Of a DNA stretch of 64,000 nt, positions 1 through 56,574 are shown one piece after another. Position 1 is the stretch's first letter. The number at the start of each line of letters is the position of its first letter. The stretch lies in NCBI GenBank assembly GCA_938005315.1, contig CALLOB010000049.1:5978-69977 (forward strand), given 5' to 3'. The notes under the pieces are model-generated. The model was not told where the DNA came from. It saw only the letters and a list, made by a program, of their open reading frames with translations, and did not search any database. Origin of the DNA: an uncultured Phycisphaerae bacterium. GTDB taxonomy: Bacteria > Planctomycetota > Phycisphaerae > UBA1845 > PWPN01. Both the position numbers and the translations under genes were made by a program.

Positions 1-361
1 CCAGAAGGCCGCGAAGGTGATGAACCGCGGCAGCTTCGGGGGCCAGGGCTGCGGCGGCCTCGACCGAGGCCTGAGCCCGGCTCAGTTCGCCTTCCTCCAG
101 CTGAATGCGGGCCATCAGCAGGTGGGCATCCAGGCATGCGGCATCCAGCGCCAGGGCTTCGGCGCACTGTTCGGAGGCGGCCTGAAGCTGCCGGGCCTCG
201 AAGCTGCGCTGGGCGAGTTGAAGCTTGATCCGGGCCCGGACCTCCCGCCAGCGCTGCTCGCCCTCTTCGCGCGCGGTCTTGTGTTTTTCGCCGGCGGCGC
301 AGCCCGTCAGGAGCAACGCGGCCGGCAGCAGCCACAGGCCGATTCCCGCGACGCGCCTCAC
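1..361 (-). CDS. TPR-like lipoprotein, N-terminal part only (runs off window start); possible secretin pilotin (PilF/PilW-type)
   Basis: Not in the ORF track because there is no stop in the window. GTG at 361-359 overlaps the secretin stop (GTGA). Hand translation gives MRRVAGIGLWLLPAALLLTGCAAGEKHK..., a signal peptide with lipobox LTGC. Helical A/L/E/Q-rich TPR-like repeats follow, and the frame stays open to position 2. Confidence 0.55.
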   Translation of the reverse strand, partial: MRRVAGIGLWLLPAALLLTGCAAGEKHKTAREEGEQRWREVRARIKLQLAQRSFEARQLQAASEQCAEALALDAACLDAHLLMARIQLEEGELSRAQASVEAAAALAPEAAAVHHLRGLL

Positions 362-2271
362 GGCATCTCCTCCTCCGGCGCGGTCGCCGGCGGACGGCCC
401 GGTCCGGCGCCCTGCAGCCGTCGCACGATGAAGTCGCGTACGATGCCGCCCTCGTCCTCCGAGAGACTCTCGGCCGTCAGTTCCTCCTTGAGCTGCAGGG
501 CCGGCAGGTAGCCGGGCTTGAGATGCAGCGCCATGCGCGCATCCCACAGGGCCTTGTCCAGGCGCCCGGCGCGGCGGTGCTCGAGGGCCCACTCGTAGTG
601 GGCCACGGCCAGTCGCTCGCGGCCCTGGGGCATGAGTCCGCGGCGCAGACCGGCGCGTACCGCCTCGATTTCCGCGGCCTGCTCGGCGCCCAACTGCGCG
701 TAGGTTTCGTCGTCCTTGACGATGTGGACGGTCAGCAGAATGATGACTTCCTCGCGGCCGGTCTGGTCGGTGGTGGTGCCGAAAAGGGTTCCGGCGCCGG
801 GAAGGCTGCCGAGATAGGGCACCTGGCTGCGATTGGTCTGGGTGGCGTCGCGGAACAGTCCGCCGATGAGGATGGTGTGGCCGTCGCGGATCACGATGCT
901 GGTGGTCACCTCGGTGGTCCGCTTGAACGGCAGGTTGGACTCGTTCAGCCCGCCGCTGCTGTCCTCCGGGTGGATCTCCATGCGGATGTGGCCGTCGTTG
1001 CCGATGAAGGGCGTGAACCGCAGCTGGGTTCCGGTCTCCAGGAACTCGACGGTCTGCGTGGCCACCGTCTCGGTGACCGTGGTGGTCAGATAGCCGTCGC
1101 GCCGGCCGACGATCACCTCGCCCTGCTGACGGTTGAGGGCCAGCACCTTGGGGTTGGCCACCACGGTGGTGTCGGTGATCTGCTCCAGGGCCCGGATGAA
1201 CACCGCGACCTTGTCCTTGATCACGCCGAAGGTGAACCCGCCGTTGGGCACGAGGTTGTTGAAGTCCGTGCGCCAGGTCATGTTGGTATTGACCATCTCC
1301 GGCCGCGGCAGCAGGCCGGTGTTCAGCTCGGTGATGCCCGGCGAGACGGAGTTCAGCGTCTGGAAGTTGACGCCCGAGAGCATGTTGAAGTCGATGCCCA
1401 GCGAGTTGGCCTCGTTGAGCTGGGCCCGCAGGATCGTGGCCTCCACGAGCACCTGCCGGGGTCTGGTGTCCAGCTCGCGGATCAGCCGCTCCACCTCGCG
1501 CAGGCGGCTGGGGGTGTCGGAAACGACGATGACATCCGGACCGGTCAGGTTCATGGTCCTGGCGGTGTCGGTGCCCGAGGAGGACGAGGATGTTCCGCCG
1601 GTGGACAGCGGCACGGAGACGATCCGCCCCTCCTCGCTCAGGGCCGACTTGATCACCGGCTCGAGGTCGCGGGTGGATACGTAGTTCAGGTGAAAGACCC
1701 GCGTTTCCTGGGTCTCGCGACGGGCCGAAGTCCGGGCGGCGGCCTGTTCGGCCAGGGTCTGGACGTAGATGAAGCGTCCTTCCTCGACATAGGTGCAGCC
1801 GTTGGGCATGAGCACCGCGGCCAGGGCCTCCTCGAAGGAGACGTCAAAGAGGTCGGCGGTCACCGTGCCGGCGACGTTGGGGCTGGCGACGATGTTCCGG
1901 CGGCTCTGGACCGACAGCATGCGCAGCACGTCGCCCAGCGGCACGTCGGTGACGTGCATCTCCACGCGCAGGTCGGGACCGACGGCCACCGACCCGCGCG
2001 GCGGCGATCCGGGGGGCGGCGCGGGCTCGTCGGAATCCGGCGGCATGGGGGCCTCGTCGGACCGGGCCGACGACTCGGGCCCGGGTGCGGGGTTGCGGGC
2101 TTCGATCATTCTGCGCAGGGCGGACAGCAGCTTGTCGCTCGCGCCCGCCGATCCGCCCGCGGCCGGCTCCTGCACGGTCGCTTCGGGCGTCTGGGCGGCT
2201 CCGTCCCGGCCCAGTCCCGCGGCCAGCAGGGCCAGCAGCAAGGCCATCAGGTTGAACTTCAGTCCGCGCAT
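358..2271 (-). CDS. Secretin (GspD/PilQ family outer-membrane channel) with C-terminal TPR-like tail
   Basis: 637 aa with signal peptide MRGLKFNLMALLLALLAAGLG. STN/N-domain-like region (VTDVPLGDVLRMLS...NIVASPNVAGTVTADL). Secretin core VVANPKVLALNRQQGEVIVG...TSIVIRDGHTILIGGLF...VPYLGSLPGAGTLFG...EVIILLTVHIV. The last ~70 aa are TPR-like (AVAHYEWALEHRRAGRLDKALWDARMALHLKPGY). Confidence 0.88.
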   Translation of the reverse strand: MRGLKFNLMALLLALLAAGLGRDGAAQTPEATVQEPAAGGSAGASDKLLSALRRMIEARNPAPGPESSARSDEAPMPPDSDEPAPPPGSPPRGSVAVGPDLRVEMHVTDVPLGDVLRMLSVQSRRNIVASPNVAGTVTADLFDVSFEEALAAVLMPNGCTYVEEGRFIYVQTLAEQAAARTSARRETQETRVFHLNYVSTRDLEPVIKSALSEEGRIVSVPLSTGGTSSSSSGTDTARTMNLTGPDVIVVSDTPSRLREVERLIRELDTRPRQVLVEATILRAQLNEANSLGIDFNMLSGVNFQTLNSVSPGITELNTGLLPRPEMVNTNMTWRTDFNNLVPNGGFTFGVIKDKVAVFIRALEQITDTTVVANPKVLALNRQQGEVIVGRRDGYLTTTVTETVATQTVEFLETGTQLRFTPFIGNDGHIRMEIHPEDSSGGLNESNLPFKRTTEVTTSIVIRDGHTILIGGLFRDATQTNRSQVPYLGSLPGAGTLFGTTTDQTGREEVIILLTVHIVKDDETYAQLGAEQAAEIEAVRAGLRRGLMPQGRERLAVAHYEWALEHRRAGRLDKALWDARMALHLKPGYLPALQLKEELTAESLSEDEGGIVRDFIVRRLQGAGPGRPPATAPEEEMP

Positions 2272-2279
2272 CCCTGCGT

Positions 2280-2633
2280 CTACCTCACGGCGGGTCGGTC
2301 CGTTCGCTCGACCGGCCTGCGCCCCGGCGGCGTCGCCGTCCTGGAACCCGCGGCCGGCTCGGCCGGCTTGCGGCCCGACTCGACCACCTCCACCCTGATC
2401 GTGCCCTGGCGGAGCAGGTCCAGGACCGCCGCCAGCGACTGATCGATGCGGTCCAGCCGGGCGATCATTTCGTTGCGTTGCAGACCGGAGTCCGGAATCT
2501 GAGCCACCGCCGACTGCAGCAGAGTCGGCTGCAGGACGTTGTCGGCCACCAGTCCGATCATCACGCCGACGACCAGACCGCCCAGGATCGCCCGGCCCCG
2601 CGGCCGCTGCAGCGGAGGTTGCGATACGGACAT
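2280..2633 (-). CDS. Bitopic membrane protein of unknown function, first gene of the secretin operon
   Basis: Internal ATG at 2633 is preceded by GGGAGGAATCC. MSVSQPPLQRPRGRAILGGLVVGVMIGLVADNVL gives one TM helix, followed by a coiled-coil-like segment. The stop lies 8 nt upstream of the secretin ATG. The longer 212-aa ORF upstream part looks like Arg/Pro-rich noise. Confidence 0.45.
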   Translation of the reverse strand: MSVSQPPLQRPRGRAILGGLVVGVMIGLVADNVLQPTLLQSAVAQIPDSGLQRNEMIARLDRIDQSLAAVLDLLRQGTIRVEVVESGRKPAEPAAGSRTATPPGRRPVERTDRPAVR

Positions 2634-2935: not shown

Positions 2936-3454
2936 ATGAACGCCAGTCGCCGGAGATTCCCGATCCGCCCGCCGCCGTGGCGGCTTGCCCTCACGCTGAT
3001 CGAGATGCTCGTGGTGCTGGTGATCATGGCCGTGCTGGCGGCGGTGGCGGTGCCGCGGTTCGGTTCGGCCGACGCCCGGCATCGTGTCGATGTCGCGGCC
3101 CGGCGGGTGGTCGCCGACCTCGAGCTGGCCCGCCAGCGGGCCCGGGCGGCCTCCGGGTATCGCTCCGTGGTTTTCGATCCGGCGGGGGCCCTCTACCGCT
3201 TGCCCGGCGTGCCCCATCCGGATCGACCGGGTTCGTCGGACGACTATACCGTGGAGCTGGGGCGCGCTCCCTATGGGGCGTCCATCATCGCCGTGGACTT
3301 CGGCGGAGACGCCACCATCGTCTTTGACGGATTCGGCACTCCCGACAGCGGCGGGGGGGTGACGATCCGCGTGGGCGGCTATACCAGGACGGTGACCGTC
3401 GATCCGCAGACGGGCAACGCCACCGTTCCGCCGGAGCCCACGGCGGTCAACTGA
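2936..3454 (+). CDS. Minor pseudopilin, GspH/FimT-like
   Basis: 172 aa. Class-III (prepilin) signal: RLA|LTLIEMLVVLVIMAVLAAVAVP with Glu at +5. Then RVDVAARRVVADLELARQRARAASGYRSVVFD, which is typical of GspH/FimT. Confidence 0.75.
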   Translation: MNASRRRFPIRPPPWRLALTLIEMLVVLVIMAVLAAVAVPRFGSADARHRVDVAARRVVADLELARQRARAASGYRSVVFDPAGALYRLPGVPHPDRPGSSDDYTVELGRAPYGASIIAVDFGGDATIVFDGFGTPDSGGGVTIRVGGYTRTVTVDPQTGNATVPPEPTAVN

Positions 3455-3463
3455 GTACCCGGG

Positions 3464-5254
3464 ATGAGCGTGGATCATCGGACATTACGGATGCGGCGGC
3501 ACGAGGCCCGCGCGGGCGGTTTGACCCCGATCGACGCGGGCGGGCGGTATGCGCCGCGCGGCTCGACCGGACGGCTCCGGTCCGGGCGGTGGAAATGGGC
3601 CGCCCCGGCCTGCCGGCGGGCGTTCACGCTTGTCGAGCTGATGGTCGGCATGGCGGTGATGAGCGTGCTGCTGGTCGGGCTGGCCTCGGCGGTGGTTATC
3701 GCGTCGCGATCGCTGCCCGGCCCGCAAAGCCGGCTGGAACGGACGGTCCGGGCCGCCGCCGCCCTGGACGGCCTGCTGGAGGACCTGAGGCTGGCGACGT
3801 GGTTCCTCGATCACACCGACACCGCCACCACGTTCGCGGTGCCGGATCGCAACGGCGACGGCCGGCCCGAGTGGATCCGTTATGCCTGGTCGGGGACCCC
3901 CGGGGACCCCCTGACCCGGCAGATCAGCGGCGGGGCGGTCGCCACCGTCCTGACCGACGTGCGGCAGTTCTCGCTGGCCCTGCTGCTGCGGACGACGCAG
4001 GAGACCTTTCCCGGCGCCGCGACGGAATCCCCGACGCTCCAGTTGCTGGCCGGTTACCCCGTGGTGCCCACCGATCCGCTGAACGATCCGGAGAAGTGGA
4101 CCATCGATCACCTGCGACATGTCAGCCAGTACGTCGAGCCGACTCTGCCGCCCGGGGCCGTGGCCTGGCGTCCGGCCCGCGTTCGATTCCTGGCCGGCAA
4201 CAAGCCGCCCGACACCGAGACGTTGCGGGTCGAGCTGCGCGAACCCGGCGTCGGCATTCGCCCTTCGACGGTGACACTGGCGGGCGTTTCGATCCCGGAA
4301 AACACCTTGCGCGGCCTGGGAAGCTGGTTCACGGTCGATTTCAACGACGTGGCCAGGCGGTCGCCGGAAGCCGGGGTCTGCATCTGCTTTCGGGGGTTGA
4401 CCGGCAGCGGCTCGCCGGCCGCAGAGCTGCGCTACGACGACCAGGCCCGGGACCGCAACGGATCCATGACCTTTTCCAACAACGGCGGCTCGAGCTGGGC
4501 CTTCGAGCCGGACTATGTTCTTCAGCACGAGGTCCGCGGCTACTGGTGGCTGCAGGGACCGCCGATCGCCGCCTCGCGACGCGCGGCCGCGTCGGTCATC
4601 GCCGCGGTGAGTACCGGGGACGCGCCTTCCGGTCGTGCCTCCGCCTCCGCCGCGGCGGCACTGCTGAACGGGCCGGAGCTGCTCAGCGGCATCTGGGAGG
4701 CGGATTTCAGCGTCCATCCATGCGAAGACCGGAACGGCAACGGCATTCCCGATTTCGGCGTGAGCAGCGGCATGATCAATCCCGCCTCGCTGGTCAACGG
4801 CGTCTGGCGGGTGGACAACGCCCTGCAGACGCTCCCCGCCAATGATTTCGCCGGGCTGACCATCGTGAAACTGCGTTTCCGCGCGACCTCCGGGGCGCTG
4901 AGCTTCCGCCTCCATGCCGACTGGGACGCCCTCAGCTGCGCGGTGATCGAGGCGTCGGTCGTGCCCGACGGCCAGGGCGGTCAGACGTTGAGGGTGTCCC
5001 ATCGTCCGGACTGGAGCACCGAGGAGCTGCTGACCGATGTGCGTTATCTGCCGCCTGATTTCGTGGAGCTGCGCCTGTTGATCGATCCCCAGCGCGATCT
5101 GGTCAACATTCGCGTCAACGAGATCGAACGCGGCACGTTCGGCTATGCCCGGATCGCCATGGCCACGGCCGACAAGTCCGCCGTGCTGTACCCGGAGGTG
5201 CCCGGGGCCGGCGAGGTCGACGATCTGTCCATCCGCGTGGCGGAGGTGCCTTGA
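3464..5254 (+). CDS. Large pseudopilin, GspJ/PilW-like N-terminus with ~400-aa C-terminal extension
   Basis: 596 aa. Prepilin motif RRA|FTLVELMVGMAVMSVLLVGLA (Glu +5). The GspJ-like part is ...FAVPDRNGDGRPEWIRYAWSG...LTRQISGG...VRQFSL. The extension has a second DRNGNGIPD loop and a beta-rich tail. The true start may be an internal Met, since the leader is unusually long. Confidence 0.65.
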   Translation: MSVDHRTLRMRRHEARAGGLTPIDAGGRYAPRGSTGRLRSGRWKWAAPACRRAFTLVELMVGMAVMSVLLVGLASAVVIASRSLPGPQSRLERTVRAAAALDGLLEDLRLATWFLDHTDTATTFAVPDRNGDGRPEWIRYAWSGTPGDPLTRQISGGAVATVLTDVRQFSLALLLRTTQETFPGAATESPTLQLLAGYPVVPTDPLNDPEKWTIDHLRHVSQYVEPTLPPGAVAWRPARVRFLAGNKPPDTETLRVELREPGVGIRPSTVTLAGVSIPENTLRGLGSWFTVDFNDVARRSPEAGVCICFRGLTGSGSPAAELRYDDQARDRNGSMTFSNNGGSSWAFEPDYVLQHEVRGYWWLQGPPIAASRRAAASVIAAVSTGDAPSGRASASAAAALLNGPELLSGIWEADFSVHPCEDRNGNGIPDFGVSSGMINPASLVNGVWRVDNALQTLPANDFAGLTIVKLRFRATSGALSFRLHADWDALSCAVIEASVVPDGQGGQTLRVSHRPDWSTEELLTDVRYLPPDFVELRLLIDPQRDLVNIRVNEIERGTFGYARIAMATADKSAVLYPEVPGAGEVDDLSIRVAEVP

Positions 5255-6105
5255 GTTCCGCGACCGTCCGACGTCCGCCCTCCCGGTGTCCGGCGCGTGG
5301 CCGCACGGCCGCAGGACGCCGGGCCCTGTCGATGGTCGAGGCGACCATCGCCTCGGTGATCGTCGGACTGCTCATGGTGGCCGCGGTCTCGGCCGCCGGT
5401 CGGGCGGCGCGGACCGGCTCCATTATCGCCGATCGGGTCGCCGGCGGGCTCCACGCCGCCGCGCTGATGACCGAAATCCTCCAGCAGGCCTATATCGACC
5501 CGGGAGCCGGCCCGGTATTCGGCCCTGAGGCCGACGAGAACCCGGCCACCCGCAGGGACTTCGACGACGTCGACGACTACCACGGCTGGAACGCCGGCCC
5601 CCCGCAGAACAAGGCCGGCGCGGTCCTGTCGGGCCTGGACGGCTGGGAGGAGTCGGTGGCCGTGGCCTGGTGCCAACCGGATAACCCCATGACCAACGCC
5701 GGCAGCGACCTGGGCGTCAAGCGGATCACCGTGACCGTCCGCCGCCGCGGGGCCGAAGTCGCCTCGCTGACGGCACTGAGGACGGCCGCTTTCAGCACGC
5801 TGAGCAATCCTCCGTCGTCGAGTTCGGACGGTAACAGTCCTCCTTCCGCAGCCTTCACCTGGCAGGTTGTCTCCGGCTCGGCCGATCTGAGCGTGTTCTT
5901 CGACGCCGGGGCCTCCGGCGATCCGGATCCCGTCGACAGCGGCACGCTGACCTTCCTCTGGGACTTCGGCGACGGCGCCGTTGCCGGGGGGCGCACCGTC
6001 ACGCACGCCTACGCCGTCGAGGGGGCCTACGTCGTGACGCTGACGGTCATCGACGGGCGGGGAGGTCTGGCCACGGTCAACCAGACCGTTGAGGTGCGAC
6101 GATGA
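5251..6105 (+). CDS. Pseudopilin (GspI/PilV-like) with Ser/Pro linker and C-terminal PKD domain
   Basis: TTG start overlaps the upstream stop (TTGA), with GGAGG 4 nt upstream. Prepilin motif RRA|LSMVEATIASVIVGLLMVAAV. Linker NPPSSSSDGNSPPSA. PKD signature FTWQ...LTFLWDFGDG...HAYAVEGAYVVTLTVIDGRGG. Confidence 0.75.
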   Translation: MSSATVRRPPSRCPARGRTAAGRRALSMVEATIASVIVGLLMVAAVSAAGRAARTGSIIADRVAGGLHAAALMTEILQQAYIDPGAGPVFGPEADENPATRRDFDDVDDYHGWNAGPPQNKAGAVLSGLDGWEESVAVAWCQPDNPMTNAGSDLGVKRITVTVRRRGAEVASLTALRTAAFSTLSNPPSSSSDGNSPPSAAFTWQVVSGSADLSVFFDAGASGDPDPVDSGTLTFLWDFGDGAVAGGRTVTHAYAVEGAYVVTLTVIDGRGGLATVNQTVEVRR

Positions 6106-7040
6106 GCGGGTGCCGCAGTCATGCCGCCGCCCGACCGGGCACTGCGTACGTCGCGGTCGTGGTCGTCGCGGCGATCGTTTCGGCCATCAGCCTGGCGGCG
6201 GTGTGGGCCGGGCGGGTCCGCCTGCGGACCGCCGAACAGGTCGCCCACGCCGCCGAGGCCCGTCTGCTGGCGTTTGCGGGTGCGGAAACCGCGGTGCAGA
6301 CCATCTCGACGGATCCCGGATGGCGAGCGAACGTTCCCCCGAATACGTATATGACCGAAAGGCAACTGGGCAACGGTCGCTTCACGTGGAAAATCGTGCC
6401 CGAACCCGAGTTCGCCGGCCAGATCAATCCGCCGGTGCGGGTTTACGGACGGGGCGTCAGGACCATGGCCGATCCACGCGAGGAAACGACGCGGATCATC
6501 AGCTTTCTGCTGAGGGCTCCGGTCGCGAATCCCGCCAACCTGCTGAGCAACCCCGGCTTCGAACGCGGCGTCTCCAAGTGGTCGGCCATGAACGGCTGCG
6601 AACTCGTCATCGAAACCAGCCCGGTTTACGCCGGGAGCCGCTGTCTGTGGGTGCATGGTCGATCCGGCGCCTCGGCCGGTCCGGCACAGTCCCTGCTGGG
6701 GCGGATCGATCGGGGCGCTTATGAAATGGAGGCCTGGATTCGTCCCACCTCATCCAACACCCGGGCGAAGTTCACGGTTTACGTCAAGGGGAGCCTTTCG
6801 ACCGGGCAATTCATCACCGACAGCACAGGCCAGGCCGTGACCACGGACAGATTCCGCCGTGTCACGATGAACGCGAATATCGACTGGTCGGGCTCGCTGG
6901 AGGAGGCCTGGGTCAGAGTCGACACCGCACCGGGGCAGCCGGTCGCAAGCTTTTATGTGGACGAAGTCGTGTTTCGCGAGAGGCCTTCGACGTCCATCGA
7001 GATCATTCCCGGTTCCTGGCGGCAGGAACTGCAGCCTTGA
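6102..7040 (+). CDS. GspK/PilX-like minor pseudopilin with C-terminal CBM4/9-type (galactose-binding-like) module
   Basis: ATGA overlap with the upstream gene. Hydrophobic N-terminus GTAYVAVVVVAAIVSAISLAAV has no Glu +5, as in GspK/PilX. PilX_N-like AEARLLAFAGAETAVQ. The C-terminal ~165 aa read NLLSNPGFERGVSKWSAMNGCELV...GSRCLWVHGR...YEMEAWIRP...FYVDEVVF, a CBM_4_9-like pattern. Confidence 0.7.
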   Translation: MSGCRSHAAARPGTAYVAVVVVAAIVSAISLAAVWAGRVRLRTAEQVAHAAEARLLAFAGAETAVQTISTDPGWRANVPPNTYMTERQLGNGRFTWKIVPEPEFAGQINPPVRVYGRGVRTMADPREETTRIISFLLRAPVANPANLLSNPGFERGVSKWSAMNGCELVIETSPVYAGSRCLWVHGRSGASAGPAQSLLGRIDRGAYEMEAWIRPTSSNTRAKFTVYVKGSLSTGQFITDSTGQAVTTDRFRRVTMNANIDWSGSLEEAWVRVDTAPGQPVASFYVDEVVFRERPSTSIEIIPGSWRQELQP

Positions 7041-7479
7041 ACCCGACAACGATTCGAGTCCGCTTTGATTTCGGATGTGGTCCACGCACCAGCCACGGCG
7101 ACCGCATGACCGGGTTTCCCGGGCCAGGCGAGACGACAATCCGTCACACACCTTTCGGTCCCATCATCCCTGAAAGCATGCTGGCCCACCCCGTGTTATC
7201 AGTTTGGATCTCCTGGTGTGTAACTCATGGAGAAAAATGAAGTTCCTGGACCTGCGAGCGGCCTTGGAAGACCCTTGTAATCAGGCTGCTGAGCGGTTTG
7301 AGCTTCAGGAGCCGAGGGCACGACGTCGATGACTACCTGAGACGTGTACAGCGGCGGCATCGTCTCCGGGTCGAGCCGGCAGACCGAGAGACCTCCGTCG
7401 AAATGCCCGGCTGTGGTTCGGCTGGCCTGATGGGATTCTCCGTCCGGGGCGGTCCGCCGACACTTGGGCGGCAAGGCGG

Positions 7480-7507
7480 TTGACAAGACGGACCTGCGGC
7501 TCTTAAT
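7480..7507 (+). promoter_or_regulatory. Candidate sigma70-type promoter
   Basis: TTGACA (7480-7485), 16-nt spacer, CTTAAT (7502-7507). It lies ~110 nt upstream of the small ORF at 7621. Confidence 0.35.
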
Positions 7508-7620
7508 CTGAAGAAGCCGTCATCTGACGCCGGTCGGCCGCGCGGCGCGGGCGGCTAGGGGTCAGATTCTGTGCCCGGTCCGGCCGGGCGAGTCAGTCAT
7601 CCCTGGCAAGGAGTGAGATC

Positions 7621-7764
7621 ATGAAGAAGGCAGGAATCGTTGCTCTGGCCGCGTTGGTCGCCATGTGCCAGTTCGGCTGCAGCGGCTGGGGTGTCGCCCA
7701 CGACGTGATCGCCCATGTCCTGGCGGTGGGCTGGACCGCCGACATGCTGAACCTGATCCCGTAA
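7621..7764 (+). CDS. Small (47 aa) secreted or lipoprotein-like peptide
   Basis: Below the ORF-track size cutoff. AAGGAG sits 7 nt upstream of the ATG. MKKAGIVALAALVAMCQFGCSGWGVAHDVIAHVLAVGWTADMLNLIP has a signal-peptide-like N-terminus and two Cys, but the lipobox is non-canonical. Confidence 0.45.
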   Translation: MKKAGIVALAALVAMCQFGCSGWGVAHDVIAHVLAVGWTADMLNLIP

Positions 7765-7792
7765 GGATCGGGGCAGCAAAAGCATACAACGG

Positions 7793-7854
7793 GCCGGCCG
7801 TCGTTCCGCGGACGGGTATGTCTCGTCCCGGTGGCGATGGCCGGCTCGTTTGTT
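7793..7854 (+). terminator. Candidate intrinsic terminator after the small ORF
   Basis: Long imperfect GC hairpin: outer stem GCCGGCCGTCG / CGATGGCCGGC, inner stem GGACG/CGTCC. It is followed by TCGTTTGTTG. Confidence 0.3.
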
Positions 7855-8030
7855 GATGGCGCATGAGGCGCTGAGACTGGACAAGGGCCCGCCCCGGTTC
7901 GTCGCCCGGGAACGTCATGGGTGATGCGGTTCGCCGGCGGGCTCAGAACCCGCCGTGTCCGCACTTCTGATTTTCCCGGTTCCGGCTGCTGATCTCCCGG
8001 TGCTTTTGCCGGATCATGCAATCGAGGAGG

Positions 8031-8858
8031 CTATTGCGCCTGCGGCGGAGGGAGCGGAACGGTATCGACCTGGAAATCGGGCAGGTCCGGCAGGCTCAGC
8101 GCACCGGCCGGCAGGCCGCGATTGATGCGGATACTGCCGGGCGGGAAGGACGCGGCGATCTCATAGCCTTCGGCCTTCTCGACGGTGCGCACGCTGATCG
8201 GCAGGTCGAGCCGGCGGTCGATCAGGAAGTGCACCGTGCCGTATTTCTCGGCCATCTGGCTTCCCGGCAGCGGTGTGCACTCGAGGTGGTCGGTCTCCGG
8301 CGGGTCGCCGGGTGTCGCGGGCAGCAGCCGGACGTGGAACTGGGCGAGGATTTCGGCCTTTTTCTGGCCGAAAGGAAGCGGAAAGGGCCCCTGGCCCAGC
8401 CGGAAGACCTCGACGGTTTCGCCGGGCCGCACGATCTGACGCCTGATGATGGTTTTGGTCGATTCGCGGGCCTCCGTGTACCACGCGCCGTCGAAGGCGT
8501 GCCACTCGCGCTTCTCGCGCACCGCGCCCTCCTGTTCGAAGCGGTCGAAGCGGATGAGGAACCGGGGGTTGGGCGTGTCCTGACGGAACAGCAGCGTGCC
8601 GGTGAACTTCTGGGTGTCCTCCAGCACCGGATCGGTCTTGATGAAGGTCAGGTCGGTCTCGATGTCGCGGATGTCGGCGCCGCGCCTCTCGAGCCGGTCC
8701 AGGATGCGCTCGACTTCCGGATCCACCGGTGCCGGCGCGGACTGGGTCATCGGCGAGGCCGGCCGGGAAGCGGGCGGCTCGGCCGGTGCGACGGCCTGCG
8801 ACCCGACGATCGTGATCAGGACCGCCAGGCTCAACACGCTCGGACAGGATCGATCCAT
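8031..8858 (-). CDS. Secreted protein, LolA-like (lipoprotein-carrier fold) family, function uncertain
   Basis: 275 aa with GAGGAG RBS and signal peptide MDRSCPSVLSLAVLITIVGSQAVA. The LolA-like pattern DLTFIKTDPVLEDTQKFTGTLLFRQDTPNPRFLIRF was recognised by eye only. Confidence 0.4.
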   Translation of the reverse strand: MDRSCPSVLSLAVLITIVGSQAVAPAEPPASRPASPMTQSAPAPVDPEVERILDRLERRGADIRDIETDLTFIKTDPVLEDTQKFTGTLLFRQDTPNPRFLIRFDRFEQEGAVREKREWHAFDGAWYTEARESTKTIIRRQIVRPGETVEVFRLGQGPFPLPFGQKKAEILAQFHVRLLPATPGDPPETDHLECTPLPGSQMAEKYGTVHFLIDRRLDLPISVRTVEKAEGYEIAASFPPGSIRINRGLPAGALSLPDLPDFQVDTVPLPPPQAQ

Positions 8859-9055
8859 GGGAACTCCTCAAGGCCGACCATTGGCATGAAGGCCGATCAT
8901 TGGCACGCCCCGCCTCGCGACCGCCGGCGGAGCCGCCTCGCGACCGCCGGCGGAGCGGGTGCGATTCTACGGGGTCTCCGCCGTGGCCGGCAAGTCCGGA
9001 CGTCGGCTCGTGAACTTTCGGGGCCGCAGATTCGACGTGGCGGCGCGCGGAGCCC

Positions 9056-9415
9056 GGGACGCGGCGGAGCGCGTTCCGGCGGAGGGCCCCGCTCTGTCGG
9101 GGCCGTACAAGACGGCGTGCGGTTGCGGACGCGACGGAGCGCGTCCCTCCGAGGCCGTGCGACATGATGTGCGGTTGCGGACGCGACGGAGCGCGTCCCT
9201 CCGGGGGCGCAAACCGGGACGCGACGGAGCGCGTTCCGGCGGAGGGCCCCGCTCTGTCGGGGCCGTGCAAGACGGCGTGCGGTTGCGGACGCGACGGAGC
9301 GCGTCCCTCCGGGGGCCGTGCAAGACGGCGTGCGATCGAGGACGCGACGGAGCGCGTCCCTCCGGGGCCGCGCGACATGATGTGCGGTTGCGGACGCGAC
9401 GGAGCGCGTCCCTCC
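9056..9415. repeat. Cluster of REP-like GC-rich palindromic elements (7 hairpin units plus 2 copies of a second palindrome)
   Basis: GGACGCGACGGAGCGCGTCCCTCC occurs at 9127, 9179, 9287, 9340 and 9392. The variant GGGACGCGRCGGAGCGCGTTCC occurs at 9056 and 9216. The second palindrome GGAGGGCCCCGCTCTGTCGGGGCC occurs at 9081 and 9241. Stems are GGACGCG/CGCGTCC and GGCCCC/GGGGCC. The cluster is entirely intergenic. Confidence 0.9.
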
Positions 9416-9451
9416 GGGGGCGGCTTGCCGGGACTGCGGGCCGCATTGATA

Positions 9452-13133: not shown

Positions 13134-13439
13134 CAGAGCGGGGCAAACGTCCGGGGAGGTTATCGGACGGGGGTCATGAAGCCGTGTGCAGGTGTCGTGG
13201 GCCTGACGGGCGGCGCGCCGATCACGGTGCGTGATCGCGCGATGTCGCAGGTTATCGGGCCTGCGGCCGCGCCCGAGGCGATCCGCCGTTGCCGACTCCG
13301 AGGCGCAGGTCGGGACCGGGTTTCAGGATCCGCCGCGGGTTCGCCTCGGGCGCAGCCGGTGCTTTGCACGCCGGTTGCGGGGAGGGTAATCTGCCACGGA
13401 CAGGGCCGCCGCCCGTTCCGCCGCCGGCTTGGGACGAAC

Positions 13440-15404
13440 ATGAACTACCAACCTTACCGGTCATCGGCTGATGAGCACCGGTCCGCGCCCGGTCCGGAGG
13501 AGATCCGTCCGGAGGACCGACCCCTGATCTTCGAGATCGCTTGGGAAGTCTGTGCCCAGACCGGCGGCATCTACACCGTGCTGCGCAGCAAGGCCCCGGC
13601 CACGGTCAAGCGCTGGGGCGACCAGTACTGCATGATCGGACCCTACCACGAGGCCGCCGCCCGGGTGGAGTTCGAGCCCATGCCGCTGACCCCCGCAGTC
13701 GAGGAGGCGGCCTCGGCGCTGCGGGCCGCGGGCGTGCAGGTGCACACCGGACGCTGGCTGATCACCGGCCGTCCGCAGGTGATGCTCATCGACGTGGGCA
13801 GCGTCGGCAGCTCGATTCCGCAGATGAAGTACTTCCTGTGGAAGGATCTGGCCATCGGCACGCCGGGCGGCGACGCGGAGATCGACCGGGTGGTGGCCTT
13901 CGGCTTTCTGACGGCCGATCTGCTGGCGGCGGTTCATCGGGCGCACCCGGCCCGGCCGGTTCTGGCCCATTTCCACGAGTGGCAGGCCGCCGTGGCTCTG
14001 CCGCTGCTCAAGCATCGCGGCGTTGCTATCCCGACGATCTTCACCACGCACGCCACGCTCGTCGGCCGGAGTCTCAGCGCCGCCAATGAGAATCTCTACG
14101 ACATCCTGCCGCAGGTGGACGCCGAGGCCGTCGCCTACCGGCACAGCATCGCTCACAAGTTCTTCATCGAGCGGCTGGCGGCGCAGAAGGCCGATGTGTT
14201 CACCACCGTTTCGGGCATCACCGCCCTGGAGGCCGAGCATTTCCTCGGGCGCAAGGCCGACGTGCTCCTGCCCAACGGATTGAACGTCGAGCGTTTCGCG
14301 GCGCCGTATCAGTTCCAGAACCTCCACCGCGAGAACAAGAACCTCATCCACGAGTTCGTGATGGGGCATTTCTTCCCCAGCTACACCTTCGACCTCGACC
14401 GCACCCTCTACGTCTTCACCGCCGGCCGCTACGAGTACCGCAACAAGGGCTTCGACCTGTTCATCGAGGCTCTCTACCGGCTCAACCAGCGGCTCAAGGC
14501 CGAACCGACGGACGTCACCGTGGTGGCGTTCATCATTGCCCCTGCTCCGTACCGGGCGCTGAACGTCGAGACGCTCAACCGCCAGGCGATGTTTCACGAA
14601 CTGCGCGAGACCTGCGAGGCCATCCAGCAGGACATGGGCGAGCGGCTCTTCCAGGTCGTCGCCCAGGGACGCCTGCCGGGGATCGACGACCTGCTCGACG
14701 AGTTCGCCCGCGTCCGCCTCAAGCGCATGATGCACGCCTGGCGGCAGGGTCCGCCGCCGACCATCGTGACGCACGACCTCTGGAACGACGGCGCCGATCC
14801 GGTGCTCTGCCACCTGCGGCACCGGGGGCTGCTGAATGCCGCCGGGGACCCGGTCAAGGTCGTCTTCCATCCCGAGTTCATCACCTCCACCAGCCCGGTG
14901 CTCGGGCTGGAGTACGACCAGTTCGTCCGCGGCTGCAATCTCGGCGTGTTCCCCTCCTACTACGAGCCCTGGGGCTACACCCCGATGGAGTGCGTGGTCC
15001 GGGGCATCCCCGCCGTGACCAGCGACCTCAGCGGCTTCGGGGCTTACGTCATGAGCCACTTCCCGGACCACAACAGCAACGGCATCTATGTCGCGCGTCG
15101 GCGGGGCGTGAGTTTCGAAGCCAGTTGCGCCGAGGTGACGGAATGGCTCTACCGGCTGACCCGCATGTCGCGCCGCGAGCGGATCGGGCTGCGCAACCGT
15201 GTCGAAAGCCACGCCGAGCACTTCGACTGGTCGAACATGACCCGTTACTACCGGGCCGCGCGGCGCTGGGCCCTGCAGAAGTACTACCCCGACCGGGAGA
15301 TCATCCCGCCCGACCTCCCGGAGAAACCTGGCGTCCGGCGGGAAACCGCCGTACCCCGTCACCGGAGGCATCGCCAGGTTTCCAGAAGGGAAAGCACGGG
15401 TTGA
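13440..15404 (+). CDS. Glycogen synthase, GT3 (eukaryote-type, Glycogen_syn family)
   Basis: ATG at 13440, in frame with the longer track ORF. FEIAWEVCAQTGGIYTVLRSKA...HFHEWQAAV...IFTTHATLVGR...FTAGRYEYRNKGFD...GVFPSYYEPWGYTPMEC...PAVTSDLSGFG. Confidence 0.85.
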   Translation: MNYQPYRSSADEHRSAPGPEEIRPEDRPLIFEIAWEVCAQTGGIYTVLRSKAPATVKRWGDQYCMIGPYHEAAARVEFEPMPLTPAVEEAASALRAAGVQVHTGRWLITGRPQVMLIDVGSVGSSIPQMKYFLWKDLAIGTPGGDAEIDRVVAFGFLTADLLAAVHRAHPARPVLAHFHEWQAAVALPLLKHRGVAIPTIFTTHATLVGRSLSAANENLYDILPQVDAEAVAYRHSIAHKFFIERLAAQKADVFTTVSGITALEAEHFLGRKADVLLPNGLNVERFAAPYQFQNLHRENKNLIHEFVMGHFFPSYTFDLDRTLYVFTAGRYEYRNKGFDLFIEALYRLNQRLKAEPTDVTVVAFIIAPAPYRALNVETLNRQAMFHELRETCEAIQQDMGERLFQVVAQGRLPGIDDLLDEFARVRLKRMMHAWRQGPPPTIVTHDLWNDGADPVLCHLRHRGLLNAAGDPVKVVFHPEFITSTSPVLGLEYDQFVRGCNLGVFPSYYEPWGYTPMECVVRGIPAVTSDLSGFGAYVMSHFPDHNSNGIYVARRRGVSFEASCAEVTEWLYRLTRMSRRERIGLRNRVESHAEHFDWSNMTRYYRAARRWALQKYYPDREIIPPDLPEKPGVRRETAVPRHRRHRQVSRRESTG

Positions 15405-17434: not shown

Positions 17435-19849
17435 TCACTTGACCGCCACGGCCTCCAGCCCGCTGAGGTTTTCGACTTCGGCGGCGTAGCCTTCCGGCAT
17501 TCGCAACCGGTACTCGATCCGGTCGCGGGTCTTTTGCCAGGACAGTTCCACGACGCCGTGCACGGTGGGCACCCGGCCGGAGCAGTGTTCCAGCGGCAGG
17601 TCGGGCAGGCGGACGTGCACGCGCCGGCCGACCGGGTCGCAGGCGAAGACGCCCAGCACGTCGCGGATGAGCACATGGGCGGCGTGCGAGGCGAAGCCGT
17701 GGTTGCAGCTGGCGACGGTGTCGTTGTTTTCCCAGAGCGTGCCGGTGCGCTCGGCCATGTAGAGGTTGTAGCGCAGCAGGTCGTCCAGCATCTGCCGCAC
17801 GCGTCCCAGGCGCGAGAGGATCTCCAGCCGCAGCATGTTGCCGACGAGCTGGTTGGAGCGATGGATATCCGGCCATTCGAAGGCCGCCCGCCGCCGCGGC
17901 CCGAAGTGGTCGATCAGCAGCGTCAGCAGCCGTTCGTGGGTCTCGGGGGTCGCCACGCCGAAGTAGAACGCGTAATACTGGCAGGTCTCGGTGCGGTTGC
18001 CGGTGACGCGGAGCTCGCCGTCGACGCGCACCGCGTTATCGACGAAGAACTCGCCGTTGAACGACTGGCGGCGGACAACCTCGCGGATGCGGCCGGCCTC
18101 CTCCAGCCAGTCGCGCCGGTGGTACATGCGTCCGGCGGCCTCCAGCGCGCCGGCCCAGAGCATGTTGGTCGGGTAATTGACGTCCTGGACGAAGTCCTGG
18201 CACCTGGACCACTCGACAAAGACCCAGCTCTCGAGCTTCTCCAGCAGGCCGTCGGCGTTGCGGAACCTCCAGAAATAGTCGAACAGCTTTTCGACCCTGG
18301 GCCGCAGGCCGTCGATCATCGCGCGGTCGCCGCTGCGACGGCCGTATTCCTCGAGCTGGAGGACGAACCACATCGCCCAGTTGGGGATGAAGCTGTTGAC
18401 CCCGTGGTCGGCCGGATAGCACATCGGCAGCATGCCCTCGGGCAGGTTGGCGAACCGCTCCGGCAGAAGGTAGTTCTCCAGGAAGACCTTCTCGATGAGC
18501 GTATGCCCGTTGAGGTCGGCGGCCACTCGGGCGGTGAAGAAGCTGTCGCACAGCCAGCCGGCCCGTTCACGCGAGGGGCAGTCCATGAAGATATCCAGCG
18601 CGTTCTGGCGGAAGGTCTGCCGGGCGGCGGCGTAGAGGGTGTTCAGTCGCCCGTCCGAGCAGGTGAAGCTCGCGTGCCGGAGGTCGTCATTGGCATATTC
18701 GCGCAGGCAGACGTTCTCGACCTCGCAGGCGCCCTCCATCACCGTGAGCTCCAGGTACCGCAGGGAATACGGCTCGATGCTCTCCAGGTCGTACGTGCCG
18801 GGCGCCAGTTCGAAGCCCAGCACGTTGGAGCAGTCCATGCGCGTGCAGTCGACGACCCCGCGGTTGAGGATTTCGTCGAACCCGACCAGCAGCCGGCACG
18901 GCCCGGCGGCCCGGACCCGCAGACCGATGAAACCGGTCAGCTCGGTGCCGAAGTCCAGGACGTGGAAGGTCTTGTCCGCCAGCCGGAACCGGGCGTCGGC
19001 GCCGAGGGTCCGGTCTACCGGCTCCAGCCGGGCCGGGGCGTGCCGCAGGAGATCCGCCATCGGCAGGGCCTGAAACTCCTCGCGGGTGAATCCGCCGCGG
19101 GTGTGGTTCCATTTCATGGTCTCCAGCCAGCGCGTGGCGTCGGTTTCGTCGGCCGGAGCCAGCGTGCCGGAGGAGACATGGCGCACCGGTCGAATGACCG
19201 CATAGGCCGGATACGGTACGCGCCGCGGCAAAAGCCGGACCGGCTCCAGCACCGCGCAGGCCGCCGGTTCCGGGGCGGCGGCCGGGTCGAGCCGCCAGGC
19301 ATCCCAGCCGGGCCGGAGGCGATAGCTCTCGCTGAACGCCCGCTGGTGGCTGTAGCGCTCGACCTTCCGCACGCGGGTGTCCAGCACCGTGGCGACAAAG
19401 CCGCCCTCGACGCCGGTGGCGGCCAGCACGCGCCCGTCGGCGGCGACCTCGGCCTGCAGGAACGGCGGCTGATGGGGCACGTAGTAGGTGTTGACGTTGA
19501 ACGCCGAGACCTCCACGGCCACGACGCTCGGCCCGGGGGCCAGCAGGCCGGTGAGGTCCAGTTCGTCGACCCGGAACCATCCGTGCGGCCCCCGCGCCGG
19601 CCCGTGCCCGGCGAACCGTCCGTTGACGAACACCCGGTAGATCGAGCACCCGGTCAGGGTGAGGACGGTCCGCGAGCCGGCGGGGGCCTCGATCACCGCA
19701 CGGAAGCCGACCAGCAGGTTCATCTCTTTTTCCAGCCCCTCCGGCCAGACGGGGCGGGCGGCGCGGAATACAGGCGTTTCGTCTCCGGCCATGGCCGCGA
19801 TACCGCCGGCAAGTGCGAACCCGATCAGGCCCATGCTGAAGGGCGACAT
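17435..19849 (-). CDS. Glycoside hydrolase, alpha-L-rhamnosidase-like (GH78 six-hairpin)
   Basis: ATG at 19849 lies 6 nt after GGAGGA; the track start is a TTG two codons upstream. Signal peptide is present. FTCSDGRLNTLY...IFMDCPSRERAGWLCDSFF...ESWVFVEWS matches the GH78 catalytic-domain pattern. Confidence 0.7.
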   Translation of the reverse strand: MSPFSMGLIGFALAGGIAAMAGDETPVFRAARPVWPEGLEKEMNLLVGFRAVIEAPAGSRTVLTLTGCSIYRVFVNGRFAGHGPARGPHGWFRVDELDLTGLLAPGPSVVAVEVSAFNVNTYYVPHQPPFLQAEVAADGRVLAATGVEGGFVATVLDTRVRKVERYSHQRAFSESYRLRPGWDAWRLDPAAAPEPAACAVLEPVRLLPRRVPYPAYAVIRPVRHVSSGTLAPADETDATRWLETMKWNHTRGGFTREEFQALPMADLLRHAPARLEPVDRTLGADARFRLADKTFHVLDFGTELTGFIGLRVRAAGPCRLLVGFDEILNRGVVDCTRMDCSNVLGFELAPGTYDLESIEPYSLRYLELTVMEGACEVENVCLREYANDDLRHASFTCSDGRLNTLYAAARQTFRQNALDIFMDCPSRERAGWLCDSFFTARVAADLNGHTLIEKVFLENYLLPERFANLPEGMLPMCYPADHGVNSFIPNWAMWFVLQLEEYGRRSGDRAMIDGLRPRVEKLFDYFWRFRNADGLLEKLESWVFVEWSRCQDFVQDVNYPTNMLWAGALEAAGRMYHRRDWLEEAGRIREVVRRQSFNGEFFVDNAVRVDGELRVTGNRTETCQYYAFYFGVATPETHERLLTLLIDHFGPRRRAAFEWPDIHRSNQLVGNMLRLEILSRLGRVRQMLDDLLRYNLYMAERTGTLWENNDTVASCNHGFASHAAHVLIRDVLGVFACDPVGRRVHVRLPDLPLEHCSGRVPTVHGVVELSWQKTRDRIEYRLRMPEGYAAEVENLSGLEAVAVK

Positions 19850-20111
19850 GTGCAATCCTCCCCGGCCGACCGGACCGGTTCCCCGCCGGGCATGACTGGC
19901 GTGGATTCCCCAACGCCCGTCCGGCGCGGTGCGACCGGCACCGGCCCGGCGGCAGCGGCATGGTATCCGAACCCCCGGACCGGTCCAACGCGTGCGCCTT
20001 GACCGCCGCGTTGCCGGTTGGGTCTAATGCCCGGCCTGCAGACGCCCGCCGGGCGGGTCGCATGGACCGGTCCGGGCGGGCCGGCAACCGGCTGTTCACC
20101 GAGGAGTGATC

Positions 20112-56067: not shown

Positions 56068-56177
56068 GGATCCGCACCTCGCCGCAACATCCGGGCCCGG
56101 CGACCGGGCTTCTTCGACCGTCCGGACCGCGCCCTCTATCATCGGCCGGTCCGCGCCCCCGTCATCAAGGAGCCGGT

Positions 56178-56453
56178 ATGCGGTTACCGGAACCGGCCGT
56201 CTGTGCCGTCTTCGTGGTCCTCCTTCCGGCGTTCCTCTGCGGTTCTGCGACCGGGGACCGGGAACCCGCCTCTTCTGCAACAGCCTACGTCGGCGATCCG
56301 GCCGCCGTCCAGCAGATGCTCGACCAGACCCGCGCCGCCGGCGGAGGCCCCGCCCGGTGGCCCGCCGGCCGGTACCGGATCGACCGGCCCCTAGAGGTGC
56401 CCGCGGGCGTCTGCCTGGCCGGGGCGGGGGCCCGCTCGGCCGGTCTCTCATGA
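56178..56453 (+). pseudogene. Truncated N-terminal fragment (91 aa) of a pectate-lyase-fold (right-handed beta-helix) protein
   Basis: AAGGAG RBS and signal peptide MRLPEPAVCAVFVVLLPAFLCG. GDPAAVQQMLDQTRAAGGGPARWPAGRYRIDRPLEVPAGVCLAGAG matches the Pectate_lyase_3 N-terminal motif. A stop follows, and no continuation was found in any frame. Confidence 0.5.
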
Positions 56454-56538
56454 CCGCGCGTCGCTCATGAGAAGTGCGCGGGTCACGGACAGCCACGGAC
56501 GCAGGGCAACTCACGATCGCGCTTCGGGCACAAGGAGT

Positions 56539-56574
56539 GTGCCCCGCCGGAAGGGGTGACTTCCAGCGGGGCAC
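56539..56574. other. Strong 15-bp hairpin between convergent genes, with a competing upstream pairing partner
   Basis: GTGCCCCGCCGGAAG-GGGTGA-CTTCCAGCGGGGCAC has one mismatch. The left arm GTGCCC can alternatively pair with GGGCAC at 56526-56531. Confidence 0.6.

Follow-up and report, generated by a model that had tools for sequence, protein, structure and literature searches.

In the best-studied type IVa pili, the ligand-binding role falls to a separate adhesin, PilY1, or to accessory pilins. Type IV pili (T4P) and type II secretion systems (T2SS) share sets of four minor subunits, H, I, J, and K, which form a quasi-helical complex capped by K, prime assembly, and end at the filament tip (PMC9934059). 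Here, we analyze a candidate set of this kind encoded by an uncultured Phycisphaerae bacterium (contig CALLOB010000049.1, positions 5,978 to 69,977 of the forward strand). This whole stretch of 64,000 nucleotides is referred to as the window. The set is a cassette of four minor-pilin genes in the order H-J-I-K, located next to a secretin gene, and its J-, I-, and K-like subunits all carry extra β-sandwich modules. We consider it fairly probable that the cassette and the adjacent secretin are the minor-pilin priming and tip set of a planctomycetal T4P-like system, with multivalent adhesion of the tip to polysaccharide or glycan as the most likely role.

Pilins that combine a pilin module with at least one domain not specific to type IV filaments are known as modular pilins. 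They are widespread, and one planctomycete example appears among their common architectures (PMC8179133). In Streptococcus sanguinis, PilB carries a vWA module, and PilC carries an Ig-like and a concanavalin A (ConA)-like lectin module with proven glycan binding; these subunits are found at the tip together with the I-like PilA (PMC8179133, PMC9934059). Other large minor pilins are of an insertion type, in which GspK holds an α-domain in the pilin β-sheet and Thermus ComZ a β-solenoid (PMC8179133). Modular minor pilins are already known as a concept, and decorated subunits of the kind described in the original prediction had been published under that name (PMC8179133, PMC9934059). The window proteins fit the modular-pilin definition, I through a PKD domain, K through a module resembling carbohydrate-binding module (CBM) family 22, and J at the level of the fold only. 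The planctomycetal family is undescribed, and our literature search found no paper on a planctomycetal H-J-I-K cassette.

The cassette resembles the S. sanguinis modular pilins in pairing a pilin with modules of ligand-binding types that are not peculiar to pili, in having a lectin or ConA type among these modules, and in that several such subunits are predicted in one tip complex. It differs in belonging to a diderm with a secretin, and in that the core J, I, and K subunits are themselves modular. The modules are also of other kinds, namely CBM22-like, PKD, and two uncharacterized sandwiches, one of which is inserted rather than appended.

Architecture of the H-J-I-K cassette

The genes and modules of the cassette are as follows.

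2936-3454 (+): H gene, open reading frame (ORF) of 172 aa; H-type minor pilin, GspH/FimU-like, compact, without an extra module (Pfam GspH)
3464-5254 (+): J-like gene, ORF of 596 aa; modular minor pilin with a long Arg-rich leader (N_methyl and model)
3989-4573 (+): J insertion module, residues ~176-370; β-sandwich on a long β-hairpin (predicted model)
4682-5251 (+): J C-terminal module, residues 407-596; second ConA/LamG-like β-sandwich (predicted model)
5251-6105 (+): I-like gene, ORF of 284 aa; modular minor pilin with a leader, a small pilin module, a Ser/Pro linker, and a PKD domain (PKD_4/PKD)
5833-6096 (+): I PKD domain, residues 195-282 (PKD_4, E=7e-16; PKD, E=6e-11)
6102-7040 (+): K-like gene, ORF of 312 aa; modular minor pilin with an N-terminal hydrophobic helix without Glu5 and a minimal four-strand pilin sheet (CBM_4_9 and model)
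6522-6986 (+): K CBM22-like jelly roll, residues ~141-295 (Pfam CBM_4_9, fold match)

The K-like subunit carries the module with the clearest family membership. Its C-terminal region matches Pfam CBM_4_9 (PF02018) over residues 145-257 with 31.6 bits (cut-off 25.9). The AlphaFold2 model, built from 81 homologues, has a mean predicted local distance difference test score (pLDDT) of 94.1 and comprises a 58-residue α1 helix, a four-strand sheet, a jelly roll at 161-293, and a short conserved C-terminal strand, PGSWRQE. In Foldseek searches, the jelly roll is closest to the xylan-binding CBM22-1 of Paenibacillus Xyn10C (4xuo), with a template modelling (TM) score of 0.82, a root-mean-square deviation of 2.7 Å, and 20% identity, followed by the CBM22 of Clostridium thermocellum Xyn10B and then by CBM16. 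The K family profile matches the CBM22 tandem 4xup with E=1.5e-26, and the two families share the motifs NxxFExGxxxW ... GxxSLxVxxR ... FYVDDV. Both the jelly-roll fold and the sequence signature place the module in the CBM22/CBM_4_9 group, and the CBM4/9-like module of the original prediction holds. Among the K-family residues, R187, Q196, Y207, W212, W251, and W262 are conserved Arg, Gln, Tyr, and Trp positions. The module is therefore alike in profile, fold, and motifs to the CBM22, CBM16, and CBM4-9 modules of xylanases and glucanases (4XUO/4XUP, 1DYO, 2ZEX), but it sits on a pilin and not on an enzyme. Its CBM family and fold suggest that it may bind carbohydrate.

The pilin part of this protein is assigned to the K type with reasonable support. 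As expected of a K-type subunit, Glu5 is missing from the K family, whose consensus, RRGxxYVAVL, contains no acidic residue at this position. The GspK model matches the N-termini of 26 of 67 K members, with a best E of 1e-7 and all matches sub-threshold; the window K itself scores 16.7 bits against a cut-off of 130. Elsewhere in the family, the N-terminus of one member matches ComGG and those of three match Verru_Chthon cassette protein A. Compared with GspK, the K core is minimal (~140 aa), with a C-terminal jelly roll in place of the α-domain. An exhaustive search of 1.84 billion cluster representatives with K returned 1122 matches at E<=0.001. About 110 of the best 150 matches are 290-340 aa long and have the same end-to-end architecture as the window K, so the pilin-CBM subunit represents a sizeable family. 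The extreme C-terminal strand that follows the CBM (residues 303-309, nt 7008-7028) is near-invariant, with the family consensus PVPGTWRRE, and may be a complex interface or a metal site.

The J-like subunit carries two further sandwiches. In Pfam, it matches N_methyl alone (PF07963; 29.9 bits, cut-off 21.2), and neither module falls in a Pfam family. The AlphaFold2 model, from a 31-sequence alignment, has a pLDDT of 84.5 and a predicted TM score of 0.75. It shows the α1 helix (56-109) and the pilin sheet, a hairpin (strands 166-188 and 355-384) that bears an all-β domain, and a second all-β domain at 431-593, with pLDDT >90 over most of the C-terminal domain. The pilin core thus consists of residues ~54-175 and 371-406. 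The original prediction had described a C-terminal, β-rich extension of about 400 aa; the region is β-rich, but roughly half of it (~176-370) is inserted in the pilin fold. That the first module is an insertion and not a C-terminal extension follows from three public proteins of ~320-500 aa (P0006, P0007, and P0034), which are J-type pilins with 51% identity to the window J over residues 49-173. They carry a CBM_4_9 domain at the position of the first all-β domain of J, followed by the closing pilin strands. Their inserted CBM_4_9 is ~35% identical to the CBM on the window K, which indicates that one CBM type rides on either J or K. This is evidence that tip-subunit modules may move between the two subunits.

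As in GspK and ComZ, the extra domain of J is inserted in the pilin fold of a tip subunit. Unlike in those proteins, the insert is a ConA/galectin-like sandwich (CBM_4_9 in P0006 and P0007), and it lies in a J-type and not a K-type subunit; a DNA-binding role as in ComZ finds no support in the cassette. Foldseek returned multi-domain matches for J with low overall TM scores, consistently to ConA/galectin/LamG-type sandwiches. These include tandem galectins (TM 0.58 to a single carbohydrate-recognition domain), GH32/GH43 accessory sandwiches, sialidase lectin domains, Bacteroides SGBP-B, and phage central-fiber, baseplate, and minor tail proteins, some of them LamG-like. The insertion module also has a marginal profile match to the DUF4815 baseplate protein of phage phi812 (9euf, E=0.005). 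Two DxNxDG loops are near-invariant in J. One, DRNGDG (128-133), lies in the pilin core, and the other (422-430) is at the start of the C-terminal domain, where the module opens with the conserved sequence DRNGNGIPDF. The original prediction counted two such loops in the extension; both exist, but only the second lies there. Their motif suggests that the loops may bind calcium.

The I-like subunit has the simplest addition. A PKD domain is tethered to the pilin module by a Ser/Pro linker (STLSNPPSSSSDGNSPPS), as had been proposed, and is an add-on to that module. The prepilin motif match of the window I is weak (10.7 bits). In the alignment of 53 family members, N_methyl is found in 33 and PKD in 11, and the RRGFSLVE motif is conserved. 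The sequence FDDVDDYxGW (residues 104-113, nt 5560-5589) is invariant in the I pilin module and may be a complex interface or a metal site. In relation to the original prediction, which allowed that the C-terminal regions of the subunits might yield neither domain matches nor β-sandwich predictions, the PKD domain, CBM_4_9, and the J sandwiches were all found.

H, J, and I have the hallmarks of prepilins: a cleavage/methylation motif, a hydrophobic α1 helix, and Glu5. The predicted prepilin-peptidase sites are RLA/LTLIEMLVV in H, RRA/FTLVELMV in J, and RRA/LSMVEATI in I, and the I and J families carry Glu5 in a G/A-F/L-S/T-L-V-E motif. In the two predicted models (J and K), the α1 helices are long. 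The prepilin leaders are unusually long (~18 to 52 aa) and Arg-rich.

The assignment of H to the GspH type is secure. H matches Pfam GspH with 29.4 bits (cut-off 21) and TIGR02532 with 22.1 bits (cut-off 16.3), and the family alignment matches E. coli GspH in hhalign with a probability of 96.5% and E=9e-10. When the family alignments were compared with E. coli GspG/H/I/J/K and PpdA/PpdB/YgdB/PpdC, only the H-GspH match was discriminating, and the scores of I and J were driven by the shared helix. No GspI/PilV match for I was found in Pfam, in the NCBIfam hidden Markov models (HMMs), or in PDB profiles, and no GspJ/PilW-specific match for J in Pfam, NCBIfam, or PDB profile searches. Apart from the marginal phage match of J, the PDB profile searches with J and I reached the N-terminal helices of major pilins only. 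The I and J labels are given by elimination, from Glu5, the presence of one small and one large subunit, and gene position. Of the GspH-, GspJ-, GspI-, and GspK/PilX-like labels in the original prediction, the first is thus upheld by Pfam, the last by a sub-threshold GspK match at the N-terminus, and the other two lack a specific HMM match.

Taken as a set, the cassette can be compared with the core HIJK sets GspH/I/J/K, FimU/PilV/PilW/PilX, and PpdA/PpdB/YgdB/PpdC. It is like them in having four contiguous prepilin-type genes with a GspH domain in H, one large and one small Glu5 subunit, and a last subunit without Glu5 as the bulkiest cap; in its relatives, it is also linked to genes for an ATPase, a platform protein, and a secretin. 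In the gsp operon of E. coli, the order is H-I-J-K rather than H-J-I-K, and ppdA-ppdB-ygdB-ppdC of the same species shows that the order varies. The cassette differs in that none of its I, J, and K proteins reaches the threshold of the corresponding family HMM. J is 2-3 times the size of GspJ/PilW, with one inserted and one appended sandwich, and I has a tethered PKD. No PilY1 homologue was found among the called genes adjoining the cassettes.

The gene models bear on whether these architectures are real. The junctions are as originally described, with the four genes coupled through a TGA, 9 nt, and ATG between H and J, a TTGA overlap between J and I, and an ATGA overlap between I and K. In public gene calls on identical metagenome contigs, J starts 27 nt later (M10, nt 3491, 587 aa) and I starts at M28. 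For I, the TTG at 5251 (in the TTGA overlap) is preferred because M28 would cut off the prepilin leader common to all I homologues, and because this TTG is the sole in-frame start 5' of the prepilin motif. Such ambiguous start codons in J and I, together with a G+C content (69%) that yields many long spurious ORFs, could raise the suspicion that pilin genes were fused to downstream CBM or PKD genes by frameshift or assembly error. This is highly improbable. G+C at third codon positions is 0.79-0.87 in all four ORFs, which is coding-type, and the full-length J and K models are both confident. Uninterrupted cassettes of the same architectures recur on identical and on independent metagenome contigs, in a relative with 62-74% identity, and in dozens of further independent genomes, and the ~110 cluster representatives share the K architecture. 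The orthologue survey and the independent contigs effectively rule out mis-joined or decaying ORFs, an outcome that the original prediction had left open for orthologous loci.

Distribution and exchange of modules

To find relatives of J, one genome for each GTDB species was scanned with a pattern, which gave 228 relatives, and the best 80 loci were fetched. The locus survey comprised 78 non-redundant loci (L001-L085 and the window, which is included in the count) with up to 10 kb of flank per side. Their ORFs were searched (phmmer) with two sets of queries, namely the separate modules of the window proteins and the machinery proteins from a relative with a complete cluster. The relatives are nearly all from Planctomycetota, mostly Phycisphaerae/Phycisphaerales, with some from Pirellulales, Isosphaeraceae, and Tepidisphaerales. 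The two cultured carriers are Fontivita pretiosa B-254, which has a complete cluster, and strain ZRK34, which has a long J and a LamG-bearing K. Searches that relied on word indexing were less productive. Full-length J, alone or as a 41-sequence profile, retrieved 5-7 proteins only, which is attributed to the common pilin N-terminus drawing in the candidates. When J, I, and K were trimmed and concatenated into one profile, 28 J homologues were returned and no I or K homologues; those of K were obtained by searching the cluster representatives exhaustively.

Across the survey, the genes keep the order H, J-like, I-like, K-like, and all four are present in 60 of the 78 loci. The decorations vary. 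J is short (~350 aa, with the insertion only) in 36 of 78 loci and long (with the C-terminal sandwich) in 42. I is bare in most loci and carries PKD in 11 of 71, whereas K carries a CBM in 26 of 68. K proteins fall into size classes: bare proteins of 145-170 aa (4 loci), CBM-bearing proteins of ~300 aa, proteins of 360-480 aa (26), and proteins of >480 aa (11). The 360-480-aa class is found mostly in Planctomycetia/Tepidisphaerales, including F. pretiosa, and its C-terminal region mostly has no Pfam match. Among 67 K proteins, Pfam identifies CBM_4_9 in 29, a β-helix matching the Bactofilin model in 7, and Laminin_G_3 in 4 (E=2e-23 in ZRK34), while others are rare and include NHL/phytase-like and DUF4394 modules in other lineages.

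The decorations also co-vary. Every PKD-bearing I (11 of 11) and every CBM-bearing K (26 of 26) belongs to a locus with a long J. All three subunits are decorated in 11 of the 78 loci, among them the window and the relative with 62-74% identity; the claim that every tip-type subunit is decorated therefore applies to the window genome and to a recurrent minority of loci, and not to the family. The cassette family appears to have a modular, swappable tip, and the swapping is consistent with a "cargo" function of the modules.

A four-gene prepilin cassette has been defined elsewhere in the Planctomycetes-Verrucomicrobia-Chlamydiae (PVC) superphylum, namely the Verru_Chthon cassette proteins A-D of Verrucomicrobia (TIGR02600, 02598, 02599, and 02596). 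The present cassette is like it in this respect and matches it through N-terminal regions: the H protein matches protein D with 33.1 bits (cut-off 70), the J protein matches protein C with 26.6 bits (cut-off 256.5), and three K proteins match protein A with E~5e-4. Membership was rejected, as the scores are far below the family cut-offs.

Secretin, filament machinery, and type of system

Two genes on the opposite strand lie next to the cassette.

358-2271 (-): PilQ/GspD-type secretin, 637 aa, with an STN/N0 domain, one Secretin_N, and the secretin domain (Pfam/NCBIfam)
2280-2633 (-): small protein, predicted to be membrane-bound, 117 aa in the public gene calls (maximal ORF to 2918) (ORF)

The secretin gene, which is absent from the original prediction, adjoins the pilin cassette and is divergently transcribed. 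The protein matches Pfam Secretin with 128 bits and Secretin_N with 41 bits. The small membrane protein gene is upstream of the secretin gene on the same strand, and genes of 117 aa and 115 aa occupy the same position in the identical metagenome contigs (L088/L089) and in L004, respectively; phmmer matches the protein in L004 and L006 only, so that its conservation is limited to the closest relative, and it has no Pfam or NCBIfam match. Downstream of the secretin gene and beyond the left edge of the window, the identical contigs encode a TPR protein of 389 aa, a neighbor also found in L004. Consistent with what had been noted from the sequence, a motif scan and phmmer searches of all ORFs >=60 aa with the relatives' machinery proteins showed that the 64 kb encode neither an ATPase nor a platform protein, PilM/N/O, or a major pilin.

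The relatives supply the missing context. At least one of a PilB-like ATPase, GspF/PilC, PilM, PilN, and PilO is encoded within 10 kb of the cassette in 40 of the 78 loci, and where the whole cluster is visible, the cassette is directly downstream of the machinery. One or two major pilins are found near the cassette in 46 of 78 loci, and a secretin in 12, as in the window; several of these also have a TPR protein. The relatives encode PilM (PilM_2), PilN, and PilO homologues, and all of their pilus homologues score below equivalog cut-offs. No GspC/L/M was found among the called genes of the best-annotated cluster, and the relatives have PilM_2-, PilN-, and PilO-type proteins in place of the GspC/L/M platform that, with GspG and GspD/E/F, defines a T2SS. 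A T4P-like filament is preferred over a classical T2SS because PilM/N/O are present and no GspC/L/M is seen in that cluster. It is reasonable to regard the cassette as part of a fiber-building type IV filament machine. The proposal that the locus builds a fiber rather than a secretion piston thus gains from the PilB-like ATPase, PilM/N/O, and major pilins near the relatives' cassettes.

Several of these components are ambiguous in type, and they bear on an alternative in which the tip built by the cassette belongs to a short, periplasmic, T2SS-like pseudopilus. Its modules would then recognize or push secreted cargo, possibly glycosylated exoproteins or carbohydrate-active enzymes (CAZymes) with matching domains, or would dock to the secretin, and would never reach the outside. 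HIJK sets are common to T2SS and T4P, and H is GspH-like. The secretin scores nearly equally on PilQ (TIGR02515, 210 bits, cut-off 284) and GspD (TIGR02517, 201 bits), both below cut-off. The relatives' major pilins score best on GspG, although weakly (44-46 bits against a cut-off of 88.85), and their platform protein scores best on GspF. The fetched flanks also contain no second, PilT-like ATPase homologue. The relatives' ATPase, however, scores slightly higher on PilB (582 bits, cut-off 676) than on GspE (569), and its MshE-type N-terminus is of the sort usual in pilus extension ATPases. The TPR protein is similar to PilW and Tgl, and together with PilM/N/O it fits a pilus better. Lineage-specific swapping of lectin-type modules is also better suited to external ligands than to a conserved secretion step. 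We regard the pseudopilus as unlikely and continue with the T4P-like filament.

The N-terminus of the ATPase in one relative (L012 2174-3961) contains an MshE-type motif for binding cyclic di-GMP (c-di-GMP), with 58 bits (cut-off 38). The F. pretiosa cluster (L075 44-1960, 13836-20506) is flanked by genes for a PAS histidine kinase, a CHASE3 hybrid kinase, and two response regulators, one with an HD_5-type HD domain and the other with an HDOD domain. The MshE-type motif and these flanking regulators hint that c-di-GMP may control the filament.

No Rfam, tRNA, or sigma-70-like promoter signal was detected in or around the cassette by RNA and signal scans. The ~1 kb 3' of K (7041-8030) has no convincing ORF, and G+C is lower there, at 0.647 over 6001-8000; public contigs call only an ORF of 47-49 aa there, and no tRNA, Rfam, or promoter-like match was found. 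Further downstream, between an unannotated 275-aa gene (8031-8858, -) and a 2-hydroxyacid dehydrogenase gene, an intergenic tandem array at 9047-9422 (also 8910-8955) consists of 6-7 units of ~52 nt with 74% matches. Each unit holds a short palindrome, GACGCG-ACGGAG-CGCGTC, and a perfect 23-nt duplication lies just upstream of the array. The array is not CRISPR-like, as its units are similar throughout, and it has no Rfam match.

Proposed role of the decorated tip

By applying established HIJK biology to the cassette, we infer that the prepilins are processed and form a complex, that this complex is displayed at the tip of a fiber passing through the secretin, and that its ligand is a carbohydrate. 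The prepilin peptidase would cut off the long leaders, and on the inner-membrane platform, the N-terminal helices would join the four subunits into a quasi-helical complex topped by the Glu5-less K. A PilB-like ATPase encoded elsewhere in the genome would then add major pilins below the complex, and the fiber would exit by way of the neighboring secretin, carrying the complex at its tip. On display there would be four β-sandwiches: the ConA/galectin-like sandwich inserted in J, the ConA/LamG-like sandwich at the J C-terminus, the PKD of I on its Ser/Pro tether, and the CBM22-like module of K. With these, the fiber tip may bind polysaccharide or glycan multivalently, either as a substrate or as a surface, and swapping of the module set between lineages would change specificity. 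Multivalent polysaccharide or glycan binding at the fiber tip appears to be the most economical reading. The original prediction had proposed appended modules for glycan binding or adhesion, and by sequence or fold they are of carbohydrate-binding types (CBM22-like in K, ConA/galectin-like in J, PKD in I).

Planctomycetes are major polysaccharide degraders and take up whole macromolecules. Gold-labelled dextran decorates pili-like fibers of Planctopirus limnophila and Gemmata obscuriglobus (PMC5394234), and attachment to chitin by means of pili has been suggested for planctomycetes (PMC11279305, PMC11131199). The molecular players behind the dextran-binding fibers are still unknown (PMC12673574). 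The cassette, which comes from the same phylum and has polysaccharide-binding-type modules, is a plausible candidate for them. However, the dextran-binding fibers are 12 nm wide and belong to Planctomycetia, whereas CBM-bearing cassettes are mostly from uncultured Phycisphaerae.

The modules may also sit on a real pilus tip without serving nutrient capture. They could attach the cell to surfaces, to its own exopolysaccharide or holdfast, to other cells (in aggregates, or when meeting algae or prey), or to proteins, or act as structural caps or spacers, for which the α-domain of GspK is a parallel. PKD domains and ConA-like sandwiches are generic and serve in adhesion or as spacers, the J modules are similar to receptor-binding tail proteins of phages, and K modules elsewhere in the family are not CBMs (the β-helix/Bactofilin-model, NHL/phytase-like, and DUF4394 modules). 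The c-di-GMP-linked regulators beside the F. pretiosa cluster and the MshE-type ATPase motif are typical of surface-attachment pili. The window also offers no functional link to extracellular CAZymes. On the other hand, the module found most often on K belongs to a genuine CBM family, with the xylan- and glucan/mannan-binding CBM22 and CBM16 as its closest relatives of solved structure, and planctomycete fibers have been shown to bind dextran. We give this alternative some weight but doubt it, and we favor polysaccharide or glycan adhesion by the tip.

Several observations weigh against the favored interpretation. Neither the window nor the 57-kb contig of the closest relative encodes a major pilin, an ATPase, or a platform protein, and no PilT-like ATPase homologue is present in the up to 10 kb fetched per side at any locus. 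Expression and assembly in the source organism are assumed. Gly is the usual residue at prepilin position -1, but all three Glu5 prepilins of the window have Ala there (predicted cleavage at 2987, 3620, and 5326). Ala at -1 is also found in J and I of the closest relative, and Gly in more distant relatives. The I and J assignments are supported by no specific match, whether to an HMM or to a structure. Sandwiches of the CBM_4_9-like and ConA-like kinds are also found in proteases and in phage fibers with other ligands. Finally, the carbohydrate genes of the window are mainly for cytoplasmic glycogen metabolism.

The last point concerns the CAZyme-rich context that the original prediction cited, which lends weak support. 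The carbohydrate genes encode a eukaryote-type glycogen synthase (13176-15404; PF05693, E=3e-221), a glycogen debranching enzyme (60442-62451), a GH57 protein (62581-63876), a GH130 protein (54604-56574), and a GH78-like rhamnosidase (17435-19855), together with sugar kinases and epimerases, and they lie among housekeeping genes. They appear to serve mostly storage-glycogen metabolism rather than form an extracellular polysaccharide-utilization locus.

A bolder extension of the tip-adhesion model can be formulated, which we consider quite unlikely. A multi-lectin tip would catch polymer chains, and fiber dynamics would bring them to or through an envelope structure associated with the secretin (perhaps the crateriform structures) and into the enlarged periplasm. 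A literature search for crateriform structures with secretins returned nothing relevant. If true, this "grappling hook" would be a molecular basis of the fiber-mediated, "selfish" uptake of macromolecules in Planctomycetota, and module swapping on J, I, and K would tune the substrate range.

If the modules bind nothing, the finding would be an unannotated, lineage-specific family of minor pilins. What is new here is a phylum-wide cassette with modules on the core J, I, and K subunits, the insertion site in J, the exchange of modules between J and K, and the co-varying decorations. For pilus biology, this would mean that swappable ligand-binding modules ride on the core subunits J, I, and K themselves. 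For planctomycetes, the open question of their fibers would gain a set of domain-resolved, lineage-recurrent candidate proteins, with F. pretiosa B-254 and strain ZRK34 as cultured carriers.

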